From Planctomycetota bacterium (lineage in GTDB: Bacteria > Planctomycetota > SZUA-567 > H5-PLA8), in the NCBI GenBank assembly GCA_037129555.1, contig JBAXUS010000003.1:3786-67785 (forward strand): DNA of 64,000 nucleotides. The letters run 5' to 3'. Shown here piece by piece: positions 51,277 to 53,156 of this stretch (position 1 is its first letter; the number at the start of each line of letters is the position of its first letter). Under the pieces are notes generated by a model that was not told where the DNA came from, did not search any database, and worked only from the letters and a program-made list of their open reading frames with translations. The position numbers and the translations under genes are program-made.

Positions 51277-51297
51277 TCCCTATAGGAATACTAGGGA
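51277..51297 (+). promoter_or_regulatory. Putative Rrf2 operator overlapping a sigma70-like promoter
   Basis: TCCCTA-N9-TAGGGA dyad directly before the Rrf2 start; TTGCCA (51250) and CATAAT (51272) upstream. Confidence 0.6.
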
Positions 51298-51305
51298 ACA
51301 GATAC

Positions 51306-51749
51306 ATGAGGGTCTCTCAAAAGACAGAGTATGCCCTCCGGGCGATGCTGGAATTGGCGAAGCATGCGCAGCAGCCGAACCCGGTGCGAACGATGGACAT
51401 TGCGCGGAACCAGGCGATACCGGAGAAGTTTCTGGAATCGATTTTGGTCGAGTTGCGGCGTTCGAGTTTAGTGACCAGTCAGCGTGGGCCGGTGGGCGGG
51501 CATCGACTGGCGCGTGAGGCGGAGCGGATTTCGGTCGGCGATATTTGGCGGGCGATTGAAGGTCCGCCAGACGACTCGCAGGTGGCTAAAAGTGCGGCGG
51601 ATGGGCGCAATAAGCGCGTGGACAATCCGTTTGGATTTGTTTGGCAGCGCGTCAATCTGGCTGTCGCTGAAGCTGTCGATGGTGTAAGCCTTGAAGATGT
51701 TCTGCAACGTTCGGAGTCCGGGGAAGCTGTCGAGGATTTCGCGATTTAG
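51306..51749 (+). CDS. Rrf2-family regulator, CymR-like (no Cys)
   Basis: EYALRAM, IA..Q.IP..FLE.IL, SQRGPVGG; no cysteine; adjacent to cysK. Confidence 0.9.
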   Translation: MRVSQKTEYALRAMLELAKHAQQPNPVRTMDIARNQAIPEKFLESILVELRRSSLVTSQRGPVGGHRLAREAERISVGDIWRAIEGPPDDSQVAKSAADGRNKRVDNPFGFVWQRVNLAVAEAVDGVSLEDVLQRSESGEAVEDFAI

Positions 51750-51812
51750 CGGGGCTGAAATTTGAAGTGAGAACATGGAACGTCAACCACAGGTTTGAGG
51801 AGGCATCGCGTC

Positions 51813-52784
51813 ATGGGTCGAATATACGAAGACAATTCATTGAGTATCGGCAACACGCCGCTGGTTCGCATTAATCGCATCACGCAAGGCTGTGGCGCGA
51901 CGATTCTGGCGAAAATTGAAGGCCGCAATCCGGCGTATTCGGTGAAGTGCCGCTTGGGTGCCGCGATGATTTGGGCCGCTGAACGCGATGGTAAATTGCG
52001 CCAGGGTTCGAAGGATGTGACGGTCGTCGAACCGACGTCGGGCAACACTGGAATTGCGCTGGCGTTTGTGTGCGCGGCGCGCGGATACCCGCTGATTCTC
52101 ACGATGCCGGAAACGATGTCGCTGGAACGCCGCCGCATGTTGAAGGCGTTCGGCGCTGAATTGGTATTGACCGAAGGTGCCAAGGGCATGCCCGGCGCGA
52201 TCGCCAAAGCGGAAGAAATCGTCGCGAGCAACCCAGCGAAATATTTCATGCCGCAGCAGTTCAAAAACCCGGCGAATCCAGAGATTCATTTCAAGACGAC
52301 CGGCCCGGAAATCTGGGACGACACCGATGGCTTGATGGACATCTTCGTCGCAGGCGTGGGCACGGGCGGAACGATCACGGGTGTGACGCGCTACTTCAAA
52401 AATGAGAAGAAGCGCGCGATCCAATCGATCGCCGTCGAGCCGATTCATTCACCCATTTTGACGCAGATCCGTACGGGTCAACCGGTCAAGCCGGGCCCGC
52501 ACAAAATTCAAGGCGTGGGTGCTGGTTTCAAGCCCGACGTGATGGATTTGAACATCGTCGATGATATCGTCACGGTCACGAACGACGAATCGGTGGAAAT
52601 GGCCAAGCGCCTGCATCGCGAAGAAGGCATCACGTGCGGCATTTCGTGCGGTGCTGCGATGGCGGCTGCGTTGAAGGTCGGCCAGCGACCGGAGAACAAA
52701 GGCAAGCTGATCGTCACGGTCCTTCCGGACGCAGGCGAACGCTACTTGTCGAGCATCCTCTTCCAAGACATCCCGGCGCAGTAA
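51813..52784 (+). CDS. cysK: Cysteine synthase A
   Basis: [16 protein letters not shown] (PLP Lys), [35 protein letters not shown]. Confidence 0.97.
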
Positions 52785-52823
52785 GTACGCGGCGGTTTTT
52801 CACGGAACTGAATTTAATCCATA

Positions 52824-52860
52824 GCTGCAGAGCGGATCGTTCGCTCTGCAGTTTATTTTA
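52824..52860 (+). terminator. Terminator-like hairpin between cysK and the DUF2061 gene
   Basis: CTGCAGAGCG/CGCTCTGCAG stem followed by TTTATTTTA. Confidence 0.7.
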
Positions 52861-52904
52861 TAAACTGCTCGACACGAAGACCGAATAATGAAGGATTCGT
52901 TGAC

Positions 52905-53156
52905 ATGGAAAGTAAACGGCGCAGTATCGCCAAGACATGCAGTTGGCGGTTTCTCGCCACGATCATCACGATGTGTGTCGCGTATTTTATGACCACATCG
53001 ACCCATGGAACGATGGGTAATGGGAAGCTGGCGATGATTATCGGATTGATGGATACGTCGTTGAAATTCGGGGTCTACTTTTTTCACGAACGCATGTGGA
53101 ACAAAATCGACTACGGTCGCGAGATTCCGAAAAAGGCGGGCGACTTCGATATTTAA
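52905..53156 (+). CDS. DUF2061 small membrane protein
   Basis: RSIAKTCSWR…YFFHERMWNKI.YG family pattern. Confidence 0.9.
   Translation: MESKRRSIAKTCSWRFLATIITMCVAYFMTTSTHGTMGNGKLAMIIGLMDTSLKFGVYFFHERMWNKIDYGREIPKKAGDFDI

Follow-up and report, generated by a model that had tools for sequence, protein, structure and literature searches.

Introduction

The described systems closest to this locus are those in which a protein with an isoleucine at its C-terminus docks on the cysteine synthase CysK. PMC3388911 describes KPGPHK as the partner-binding motif of CysK, gives DYVI as a competitive inhibitor of cysteine synthase (Ki 4 uM) and DFSI as an inhibitor of the Mycobacterium tuberculosis enzyme (Ki 5 uM), and reports that heterologous tails bind cysteine synthase as well. 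Docking of the CysE tail has been published to compete with O-acetylserine. In Staphylococcus aureus, according to bioRxiv 10.1101/2024.09.19.614015, the tails of CymR and CysE occupy the active site of CysK, where the TSGNT loop and a Gln hold the carboxylate of the terminal Ile while a hydrophobic channel receives the aromatic residue at -2; CymR ends in GYMFYI in that account, and the decapeptide has a KD of 25 nM for CysK. CysK is also listed as a controller of CymR activity in Bacillus subtilis (PMC6522883), and CdiA-CT(EC536) is described as an unrelated protein whose acquired C-terminal Ile tail recruits CysK (PMC4961446).

Here we compare with these systems a locus in the window, by which we mean the whole 64,000-nucleotide stretch of Planctomycetota DNA that was analysed. 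A preliminary description had placed cysK between genes for an Rrf2-family regulator and a DUF2061 protein, both ending in D-F-x-I-stop, and the open reading frames and profile matches confirmed this arrangement, which comprises the following features:

51250..51277, + strand, sigma-70-like promoter of the rrf2-cysK unit (TTGCCA, 16 nt, CATAAT)
51277..51297, no strand assigned, putative dyad operator (TCCCTA-N9-TAGGGA)
51306-51749, + strand, Rrf2-family regulator gene (ORF of 147 aa, protein ending in VEDFAI)
51732..51746, + strand, Rrf2 C-terminal tail E-D-F-A-I, from the translation
51813-52784, + strand, cysK, O-acetylserine sulfhydrylase A (323 aa)
52823..52863, + strand, hairpin and T-run resembling an intrinsic terminator in the gap between cysK and the DUF2061 gene (stem 52823-52853)
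52905-53156, + strand, DUF2061 gene (ORF of 83 aa, protein ending in KKAGDFDI)
53106..53138, + strand, DUF2061 linker, residues 68-78 (IDYGREIPKKA; coil in the AF2 model, pLDDT 62-66)
53139..53153, + strand, DUF2061 C-terminal tail G-D-F-D-I, from the translation

Results

The order of a tailed Rrf2 gene, cysK and a tailed DUF2061 gene was found again in 9 of 15 class-level loci, and it is also present in Halarcobacter. The product of the central gene is cysteine synthase A, scoring 443.6 bits against TIGR01139 (cut-off 350.95) with the CysM models under their cut-offs, and in a profile search it was the single match of its family over the cut-off in this genome. It matches solved CysK enzymes, including 1oas, 5j43, 1y7l, 2q3b and 2isq, at E values of about 1e-130. 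We located the motifs TSGNT (residues 75-79), QQF (148-150), GTGGT (183-187), KPGPHK (226-231) and GAGF (236-239), whose equivalence to S. aureus and Arabidopsis residues was assigned by motif rather than by a computed alignment. The enzyme in the window retains both the active-site docking motifs and the KPGPHK partner-binding motif, which counts in favour of CysK as the receptor.

The upstream gene encodes a member of the Rrf2 family, at 108.5 bits against PF02082 (cut-off 30) and 105.3 bits against TIGR00738 (cut-off 73.3). At 81.2 bits against NF047409, for a cut-off of 195, the protein is not filed as the CymR equivalog. An assignment as an Fe-S regulator of the IscR, NsrR or RirA kind was rejected as well: equivalog scores lie far under the cut-offs (82.1 bits vs 207.55 for the IscR model) and the translation contains no Cys, as had been claimed beforehand. 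Orthologues have 0 to 2 Cys, and the Fe-S cluster type requires three Cys ligands. The tail recurs as a [DE][FY]xI end in the best 94 of the 120 homologues listed (at least 42% identity), while the other 26 of those listed form a different Rrf2 subgroup in which it is absent (0/26).

As in the CymR-CysK pair of B. subtilis and S. aureus, an Rrf2 repressor without an Fe-S cluster but with an aromatic-x-Ile tail would here take part in the control of cysteine metabolism. Apart from its low score on the CymR model, the window-type Rrf2 differs in its distribution, which covers Planctomycetota along with certain further Gram-negative phyla, in having a tail of the CysE type (P-D-F/Y-S/N-I) rather than M-F-Y-I, and in being encoded, in the window, directly upstream of cysK. 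With the tail kept in the best 94 of the 120 listed homologues, a conserved operator and the S. aureus precedent, the CymR-like reading is well supported: by analogy, the protein probably functions like CymR while belonging to a separate Rrf2 subgroup.

The putative promoter of the rrf2-cysK unit has 10 of 12 consensus matches and is the sole promoter-like site in 51150-53300; shuffles of this region average 1.4, so it is to be read as a consensus match only. The first base of the dyad doubles as the final one of the -10 hexamer, and the dyad stops 9 nt short of the Rrf2 start codon. A similar dyad (TTCCYAT...TAGGRA) lies in the same place upstream of the Rrf2 orthologue in five other Planctomycetota loci (L008, L009, L010, L011 and L016). 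The earlier observation of a dyad upstream of this gene was borne out by the sequence. The hairpin previously noticed between cysK and the DUF2061 gene is present too, with 14 pairs, 7 of them G-C, and a loop of 3; it is followed by TATTTTAT, with the tail TATTTTATAA. Strong hairpins, mostly with a T-run after them, occupy the same intergenic region in the orthologous Planctomycetota loci L008, L009, L010, L011 and L128, with stem sequences that differ.

The downstream protein matches PF09834 at 59.9 bits (cut-off 23.1) over profile positions 1-52 of 52, and no NCBIfam model matched it. Its AF2 model (mean pLDDT 86) contains helices at residues 4-32 and 39-67, and the last 16 residues, from residue 68 onwards, form a coil after the helical hairpin. 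The tail had been proposed to follow a flexible linker beyond the membrane domain, and this is what we found: the pLDDT of the linker is low, and its columns vary across homologues, with G71 and the tail conserved. From the hydrophobic segments at 16-32 and 42-60 and the distribution of K+R (5 at the N-terminus, 1 in the loop, 5 at the C-terminus), the protein is predicted to be a membrane hairpin of two helices, for which the positive-inside rule favours a cytoplasmic location of either end, and the APS kinase or CysQ-like domain fused at the C-terminal end in relatives also argues for a cytoplasmic C-terminus. Positions R6, K10, S13, R15, K54, H61, E62, R63, W65 and N66 never vary, and D50 hardly does. 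The family comprises 1144 cluster representatives at E <=0.001 (library clustered at 50% identity). In some cellular proteins the hairpin continues into an APS kinase or a CysQ-like domain, and the APS-kinase fusions lack the tail. A search of a 5.8-billion-protein collection for fused longer relatives returned 0 of 7 candidates at E <=0.001, a weak result given that fusions are known by other routes. Our literature search found no paper connecting DUF2061 to sulfur metabolism.

The preliminary description had staked its case on the terminal Ile being kept in DUF2061 homologues, and the survey of homologues did not refute it. All 17 close homologues end in [DE][FY]xI, and a [DE][FYW]x[IV] end follows a variable linker in 72 of 80 cellular loci, a proportion inflated by the choice of the 80 genome loci most similar to the tail-bearing query. 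These loci span Planctomycetota, Desulfuromonadales, Polyangia, Bacteroidota, Acidobacteriota and Campylobacterota among many phyla. Within the 72 tails, the acidic residue is E in 49 and D in 23, the aromatic Y in 65 and F in 7, and the last residue I in 63 and V in 9, with P at -4 in 56. Judged by sequence and AF2 model, the DUF2061 protein in the window resembles a docking partner: its last residue is an Ile whose carboxylate is free, the residue at -2 is aromatic, and both stand on a flexible extension.

Among cluster representatives, the tail occurs in 23 of 57 single-domain DUF2061 proteins vs 1 of 93 long or tandem ones. Phage DUF2061 proteins stop directly after the WGR/K motif and lack it altogether (0/80). 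The claim of a tail on DUF2061 thus does not extend to the whole family, failing for phage copies, for 92 of the 93 long or tandem representatives and for APS-kinase-fused forms. Since the tail is missing from 80 of 80 phage copies and other proteins end in an APS kinase or CysQ-like domain instead, it looks like an add-on to the core. Two Bacteroidota DUF2061 genes inside assimilation operons (L076 and L078) also encode no tail, which suggests that the core function of the family is independent of it and counts against the docking reading. From its recurrence in close homologues, in cellular loci and in single-domain representatives, we take the DUF2061 tail to be under selection.

Across the 7.18-Mb genome, 36,281 ORFs are 60 aa or longer; 6 of them have a D[FYW]xI end, where position frequencies lead one to expect 3.9. 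Two of the six are short, nested in longer ORFs and without a Pfam match, and are considered spurious; the other four encode the Rrf2 protein, DUF2061, CysH and a CysE-TrpC fusion. The earlier picture of two tailed partners was therefore right about Rrf2 and DUF2061 but too narrow, because CysH and CysE-TrpC carry the same tail.

The surroundings of DUF2061 genes point to sulfur metabolism. At 53 of the 72 tail-bearing loci, cysK, cysH, cysD, cysNC or a sulfite reductase gene lies within 3 kb (138 neighbours were checked with Pfam). When DUF2061 C-termini were split by cysK linkage, as had been proposed, every locus where cysK lay no more than 3 kb away carried the tail (11/11), and cysK was missing from the surroundings of the loci without it (0/8). 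At 61 of the 72 tail-bearing loci cysK is not adjacent, and DUF2061 instead heads a DUF2061-cysH-cysD-cysNC operon, so a different pathway protein could be the receptor. Complete CysNC neighbours end in E-W-x-I in 9 of 35 cases. Unrelated complete neighbour ORFs never carry the tail (0/259), which, with the four credible carriers in this genome, indicates that the tail is specific to sulfur proteins. The operon data place DUF2061, a widespread family without an assigned function, firmly in sulfate assimilation. This genome also encodes a SulP-family transporter gene, whose presence led us to reject DUF2061 as the necessary only sulfate importer; every match to a sulfate ABC permease in the genome fell below the sulfate-specific cut-off.

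Discussion

Our best explanation, which we judge somewhat probable when taken as a whole, is that rrf2-cysK-(terminator)-DUF2061 is a conserved sulfur-sensing module in which the DUF2061 hairpin recruits CysK by means of a CysE-like tail, with the Rrf2 protein in the part that CymR plays elsewhere. A cluster-less, CymR-like Rrf2 repressor would sit on the dyad of its own promoter, and its D-F-x-I tail would dock in the CysK active site, making CysK an O-acetylserine-sensitive co-repressor. The DUF2061 tail, which after about 11 variable linker residues would present an acidic residue at -3, an aromatic one at -2 and the free carboxylate of Ile at 0, would tether CysK to the cytoplasmic side of the membrane and would fill and inhibit one of its active sites. 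With four tailed partners (Rrf2, DUF2061, CysH and CysE-TrpC) and a single CysK, the partners would have to compete, and during sulfur shortage O-acetylserine would compete with the terminal Ile and free all of them together. That the DUF2061 tail binds CysK, how the hairpin is oriented, that the partners compete and what tethering achieves are inferences, drawn from the genes, the conserved tails, the operon context, the disordered linker and the receptor motifs in CysK together with the published docking of such tails.

This arrangement shares with the cysteine synthase complex a tail consisting of an acidic residue, an aromatic residue, any residue and Ile-COOH (DYVI in plant SAT, DFSI in M. 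tuberculosis), which in CysE, too, is borne on a flexible extension. It differs in that the DUF2061 carrier is an 83-residue membrane hairpin without an enzymatic domain, and in that several lineages with a tailed DUF2061 have a CysE without an Ile tail. As in CdiA-CT(EC536)-CysK, the Ile tail would have been gained by a protein unrelated to CysE, although CdiA-CT(EC536) is a toxin activated by CysK and DUF2061 a conserved housekeeping membrane protein of sulfur-assimilation operons. The DUF2061-APS kinase and DUF2061-CysQ-like fusions have the same N-terminal PF09834 hairpin, with the enzyme at the presumably cytoplasmic C-terminal end; there the link to the sulfate-activation or PAP-hydrolysis enzyme is covalent, whereas DUF2061 in the window would hold CysK non-covalently and reversibly. 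In plants, the STAS domain of SULTR1;2 is reported to bind cysteine synthase, so that a membrane protein of sulfate assimilation again engages the last enzyme of cysteine synthesis, with a different fold and interface; we know of no description of terminal-Ile docking for this domain.

Two D-F-x-I ends might flank cysK by chance, given that a four-residue motif is short and that 3.9 ORFs of 60 aa or more should end this way in the genome as a whole, but this has next to no probability: the conservation of both tails over wide phylogenetic distances refutes it, and the carriers are all sulfur-pathway proteins. We also consider it very unlikely that the tail serves DUF2061 itself, in oligomer assembly or membrane insertion, and has merely converged with CysK ligands, leaving the Rrf2 tail as the only ligand. 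The Pro conserved at -4, which is not described for CysE tails, and the existence of Val-ending variants would suit such a role; phage, tandem and fused forms nonetheless manage without the tail, which stands on a disordered, variable linker and has its motif in common with three sulfur proteins of this genome to which DUF2061 is unrelated. A different common factor could read the [DE]-aromatic-x-Ile end, either as a C-terminal degron through which a cytoplasmic protease or adaptor would co-regulate the turnover of sulfur-pathway proteins, or as a docking site for CysD, CysH or sulfite reductase. This would accommodate the tailed DUF2061 genes that mostly adjoin cysH-cysD-cysNC and not cysK, the E-W-x-I ends of CysNC neighbours and the genomes in which a tailed DUF2061 coexists with a tail-less CysE. 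We nevertheless regard it as distinctly unlikely: in the docking literature as far as it is cited here, CysK is the only known acceptor of exactly such a motif, and every gene of the conserved Planctomycetota cluster except cysK encodes the tail. In addition, CysK scored over its family cut-off in 5 of 5 tail-bearing genomes tested elsewhere, and CysE, the classical CysK ligand, has kept its tail despite the fusion to TrpC in 15 of 17 family genomes.

Rather unlikely, in our estimate, is that DUF2061 serves chiefly in transport and not as a passive tether, either as a small oligomeric anion channel or as an accessory to sulfate activation, and that its tail docks CysK for gating or reporting, as has been reported for cysteine synthase and the STAS domain of plant SULTR1;2. 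Such a function would fit the invariant polar residues in and beside the helices, and the company of sulfate-activation genes where CysK is uninvolved, as seen in the APS-kinase-like genes at 9 of 80 phage DUF2061 loci, in the APS-kinase fusions and in the tail-less copies of Bacteroidota cysHDN operons. Against it stand a core of only about 65 residues and two helices and a genome already provided with a SulP-family transporter, and fusions to cytosolic enzymes fit an anchor equally well. To our knowledge, DUF2061 has neither been the subject of a transport assay nor shows homology to any transporter.

Beyond capture of CysK by DUF2061 and CymR-like repression, a wider claim appears possible to us but, taken as a whole, not probable: CysK may be an O-acetylserine-gated docking hub for the entire sulfate-assimilation pathway, reached through a portable tail, [DE]-aromatic-x-Ile or G-x-G-Ile, that several proteins acquired independently. 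The recipients would be the Rrf2 subgroup, CysE (its TrpC fusion included), CysH (PAPS/APS reductase) in Planctomycetota, CysNC in Desulfuromonadales and DUF2061 in many phyla. At low O-acetylserine, docking on CysK would sequester the pathway or inhibit it, to some extent at the membrane, and accumulation of the carbon skeleton would release every partner simultaneously. If the tails bind, the partners of CysK (CysE, CymR and CdiA-CT) would be joined by a membrane protein and probably by two pathway enzymes, and the cysteine synthase complex would become a single instance of a wider circuit in which competing partners give a reading of O-acetylserine. This would explain CysK as a sensor in organisms with a tail-less CysE, and would supply natural high-affinity tails for the peptide scaffolds explored as CysK inhibitors.

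As to the last residue of the tail, we know of no reported CysK partner that ends in Val. Published docking work, in the accounts drawn on here, stresses the terminal Ile (PMC3388911; bioRxiv 10.1101/2024.09.19.614015), and the nine Val-ending DUF2061 tails count against CysK docking. The same holds for CysE without an Ile tail alongside a tailed DUF2061. CysE of five Polyangia genomes has no terminal Ile or Val, though DUF2061 has the tail, and in three Desulfuromonadales genomes and a Halarcobacter genome CysE has no Ile tail, though DUF2061 has one. Comparison of the DUF2061 and CysE tails within the same genomes yielded no usable covariation. Among the non-Polyangia CysE proteins checked, only that of Maribellus, ending in DGAGI, has an Ile tail; Maribellus luteus (L070) carries the DUF2061 tail as IEYEI.

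The exact dyad occurs once in the 7.18-Mb genome, with two further sites at one mismatch, and these three sites at <=1 mismatch defined no wider regulon. Inspection by eye found no dyad resembling the operator upstream of cysH, cysD, cysNC, the sulfite reductase gene or cysE-trpC. The right half-site of the dyad, TAGGAAT, presumably resembles the CymR box.

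Both neighbours of cysK end in a CysK-docking-like tail

The cysK gene in the window is flanked by two genes in the same orientation, encoding an Rrf2-family regulator and the small membrane-hairpin protein DUF2061 (PF09834). Both products end in an acidic-aromatic-x-Ile motif ([DE][FYW]xI, hereafter the tail; counts for DUF2061 also admit Val) that resembles the CysK-docking ends of CysE and CymR. The three genes, both tails, the cysteine-free regulator, the dyad and the hairpin were each found where the preliminary description had placed them:

51250-51277, + strand: sigma-70-like promoter (TTGCCA, 16 nt, CATAAT), a consensus match that runs into the dyad
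51277-51297, no strand: dyad TCCCTA-N9-TAGGGA, ending 9 nt upstream of the Rrf2 start codon
51306-51749, + strand: Rrf2-family regulator, 147 aa, PF02082 108.5 bits, no cysteine, C-terminus VEDFAI
51813-52784, + strand: cysK, 323 aa, TIGR01139 443.6 bits against a cut-off of 350.95
52823-52863, + strand: hairpin of 14 pairs with a T-run, between cysK and the DUF2061 gene
52905-53156, + strand: DUF2061 gene, 83 aa, PF09834 59.9 bits, C-terminus AGDFDI

A strong hairpin with other stem sequences also occupies the cysK-DUF2061 intergenic region of orthologous Planctomycetota loci, and its form suggests a terminator. Directly upstream of the promoter lies a DUF2092-thioredoxin/redoxin fusion gene (49948-51195, + strand), the same neighbour as in the Planctomycetota loci L008 and L009. 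On the downstream side are a SurA-like PPIase gene (53166-54278, - strand) and, past it, a 1964-aa ORF (54275-60169, - strand).

The preliminary description had tied its docking proposal to the terminal Ile of DUF2061, and this residue, together with [DE][FY] at -3/-2, is kept in 17/17 close homologues, with a variable linker before the tail. Its placing of the tail beyond the membrane domain is borne out by an AF2 model built from 37 sequences (mean pLDDT 86), in which helices span residues 4-32 and 39-67 and the last 16 residues are coil (pLDDT 62-66). Hydrophobic segments cover residues 16-32 and 42-60, and the spread of K+R (five at the N-terminus, one in the loop, five at the C-terminus) favours a predicted topology with both ends cytoplasmic.

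Prokaryote genomes, one per species, were scanned and yielded 454 confirmed DUF2061 relatives, and in the best 80 loci a [DE][FYW]x[IV] end was present in 72, a share inflated because these loci were chosen as most like the tail-bearing query. The 80 loci come from Planctomycetota, Desulfuromonadales, Polyangia, Bacteroidota, Acidobacteriota, Campylobacterota, Omnitrophota and others. The 72 tails have E (49) or D (23) at -3, Y (65) or F (7) at -2 and I (63) or V (9) at the end, with Pro at -4 in 56. In a less biased sample, the best 150 cluster representatives of a 1.84-billion-protein library, [DE][FYW]xI ended 23/57 single-domain proteins (<=115 aa) and 1/93 longer or tandem ones; a few representatives ended in GDGI or GLGI, the kind of ending known from E. 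coli CysE.

Tails genome-wide are found on sulfur-pathway proteins

The window's own genome (G000; 7.18 Mb, 91% complete) contains 36,281 ORFs of 60 aa or longer. Six of them end in D-[FYW]-x-I, where position frequencies predict 3.9. Two of these, of 78 and 86 aa, are nested in longer ORFs, have no Pfam match and were discarded as spurious. The remaining four are the Rrf2 regulator, DUF2061, CysH and a CysE-TrpC fusion. All four credible carriers are sulfur-pathway proteins, and the two tails flanking cysK are beyond chance. Since the genome encodes a single CysK above the family cut-off, one receptor candidate faces four carriers. The two carriers that do not adjoin cysK are:

G000:C446:5093-6712 (= L002:511-2130), - strand: CysE-TrpC fusion; relatives L139-L156
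G000:C18:10553-11293 (= L099:2554-3294), - strand: CysH with a C-terminal extension beyond ECGLH; relatives L102-L124

The fusion joins hexapeptide (serine acetyltransferase) and IGPS (indole-3-glycerol-phosphate synthase, TrpC) domains and ends in TSDYSI. It is present in 17/17 genomes of the family, and in 15 of them the TrpC domain terminates in [DEQ][YF]xI; the tail of CysE, the classical CysK ligand, has been relocated to the TrpC end, which shows it to be a portable module in this lineage. A 2025 survey of CysE diversity contains no mention of 'fusion', 'fused' or 'indole'.

CysH, a PAPS/APS reductase (PF01507), ends in SQDFNI beyond its ECGLH motif. Among 23 class-level CysH loci (one, L112, from the unpublished genome G029, on which no other result depends), DF[NSA]I ends occur in 10, all close orthologues; seven more end in GAGI, GSGI, NGNI, KGVI or NYTI, one in KGVV, and five have no such tail. 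FTDGSGI ends correspond to DGSGI, a Leishmania SAT peptide tested in PMC3388911. An E-W-x-I end was also present in 9/35 complete CysN-CysC fusions beside DUF2061 (L020, L026, L027, L028, L034, L039, L041, L044, L047). These CysNC proteins are all Desulfuromonadales-type and most are 637 aa long; the end is lacking in shorter CysN forms, whose kinase domain is truncated.

DUF2061 genes cluster with sulfate-assimilation genes

Neighbourhoods were surveyed by Pfam on 138 neighbours and by BLAST classes for all 421 neighbour ORFs. A sulfate-assimilation enzyme gene lay within 3 kb in 53/72 tail-bearing DUF2061 loci (cysH 32, cysNC 32, cysD 25, cysK 11, sulfite reductase 10), and the tail motif occurred in 0/259 unrelated complete neighbour ORFs. 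Two gene orders dominate. Planctomycetota, Polyangia and Halarcobacter share Rrf2-cysK-DUF2061, with or without cysH; the Halarcobacter operon runs on into cysH-cysD-cysNC, and its Rrf2 protein has HYSI at the end. Desulfuromonadales have DUF2061-cysH-cysD-cysNC. When C-termini were split by cysK linkage, as the preliminary description had proposed, the tail was present in 11/11 loci with cysK within 3 kb and cysK was near 0/8 tail-less loci; most tail-bearing DUF2061 genes (all except those 11 of 72) are not beside cysK.

Within the window's class, DUF2061 is present in 14/62 genomes (15 loci). Rrf2(tail)-cysK-DUF2061(tail) is the order in nine of these loci, and in another two it is Rrf2(tail)-cysH-DUF2061(tail)-cysD-cysNC, counts that are not independent of L008-L011, L013 and L016 because several are the same genomes (for L008-L011, identity was judged by identical intergenic sequences). 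DUF2061 very probably functions in sulfate assimilation.

The Rrf2 regulator resembles CymR

The best 94 of 120 listed Rrf2 homologues (42-100% identity) end in [DE]-[FY]-x-I, mostly P-D-F/Y-S/N-I, and contain zero to two cysteines, except P0260 with five. The other 26 form a different Rrf2 subgroup, with the tail in 0/26. Assignment of the regulator as a CymR equivalog was rejected (81.2 bits against 195 needed). CymR is an Rrf2 repressor that lacks a cluster and ends in an aromatic-x-Ile tail, and the window regulator has both properties; we consider it probable, with good confidence, that it works like CymR.

Five further Planctomycetota loci (L008, L009, L010, L011, L016) have the dyad conserved at the same place 5' of their Rrf2 orthologue; in L016 its sequence is ATTCCTATC-GGATT-GATAGGAAT. 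A near-copy with one mismatch, one of only two in the window's own genome, lies at G000:C595:14675-14695, about 95 nt upstream of a 480-aa ORF (14772-16214) whose N-terminus is sulfatase-like by eye. This may be chance, as sulfatases are numerous in planctomycetes.

CysK is the likely receptor of the tails

Tail docking into CysK is already known for CysE, CymR and CdiA-CT. A preprint on S. aureus (bioRxiv 10.1101/2024.09.19.614015) shows by crystal structures and SPR that CymR and CysE tails fill the active site of CysK, with the Ile carboxylate on T73, N76, T77 and Q145 and the -2 aromatic in a channel of M124, I128, F146, A227 and F229. According to PMC3388911, cysteine synthase accepts heterologous tails: DYVI is a competitive inhibitor of the Leishmania and Arabidopsis enzymes (Ki 4 uM, IC50 7-8 uM), DFSI acts as an inhibitor on that of M. 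tuberculosis (Ki 5 uM) and DGSGI binds weakly. The same paper establishes competition between O-acetylserine and the terminal Ile for CysE tails, and finds that plant and Leishmania enzymes need Lys, His and Lys of the KPGPHK motif to bind their partners.

Window CysK closely matches solved tail-accepting enzymes such as 5j43, 1oas, 1y7l, 2q3b and 2isq (E about 1e-130 to 1e-106) and keeps TSGNT, QQF, GTGGT, GAGF and KPGPHK (residues matched by motif). In the conserved class cluster, cysK is the sole gene without a tail. CysK above cut-off was also found in 5/5 tail-bearing genomes tested outside the class, which discriminates little because CysK is so common. CysK is likely the receptor of the tails, and for the DUF2061 tail in particular we favour binding to CysK with moderate confidence.

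In Polyangia, DUF2061 tails read P-D-Y-[EQ]-V (L038, L052, L086 and other Polyangia loci), and to our knowledge Val-ending tails are unprecedented among CysK ligands. In the adjacent CysK-like proteins, APGAHHLPG or AAGSHHLPG replaces the partner-binding loop KPGPHKIQG, an anecdotal hint, from one lineage, that tail and loop may co-vary. No Ile tail was found on CysE in the examined Polyangia, Desulfuromonadales and Halarcobacter genomes with a DUF2061 tail, and Polyangia CysE has neither an Ile nor a Val tail; the tails are therefore not simple copies of the local CysE.

We propose that, at low O-acetylserine, CysK would be occupied by tails: together with Rrf2 it would act as a repressor complex on the dyad, which would cover the transcription start; bound to CysE-TrpC it would make up the cysteine synthase complex; and DUF2061 would keep it inhibited at the membrane. 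It might also hold CysH. When sulfide is short, O-acetylserine would build up and compete with the terminal Ile, so that every partner is let go and rrf2-cysK is derepressed, and terminator read-through would then supply more DUF2061. Tethering might bring CysK close to sulfate uptake or activation, might gate a function of DUF2061 or might just buffer free CysK.

In the literature searched, neither a membrane-hairpin CysK partner nor a tail on CysH or CysNC is described; the publications listed for moonlighting partners of CysK do not deal with such proteins, judging by titles and abstract openings. DUF2061 is absent from titles and abstracts there, and no publication combining APS kinase, membrane and DUF2061 was found among those listed; in a Caulobacter study, DUF2061 figures only as an iron-responsive hypothetical gene.

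The tail is an addition to the DUF2061 core

Tail-less DUF2061 is fused to APS kinase in cellular proteins (L071, L074, L075, L080, P0106), is fused as a tandem to an inositol-monophosphatase/CysQ-like domain in P0090, and lies inside Bacteroidota cysHDN operons (L076, L078). Relatives are also encoded on 539 viral stretches, and in the best 80 of these phage/viral loci (L157-L236) the tail was found in 0/80; the viral copies end just after WG[RK], at 64-70 aa, or carry unrelated ends. It follows that the hairpin does something in sulfate activation or assimilation independently of the tail. The C-terminal end of DUF2061 is an attachment site for cytosolic sulfur enzymes, covalent in the fusions, and on our reading the tail is its non-covalent counterpart.

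An APS-kinase-like gene neighbours DUF2061 in nine of the best 80 viral loci. Its product ends in K-Q-[ML]-G-I in seven of the nine and is fused to DUF2061 in the other two.
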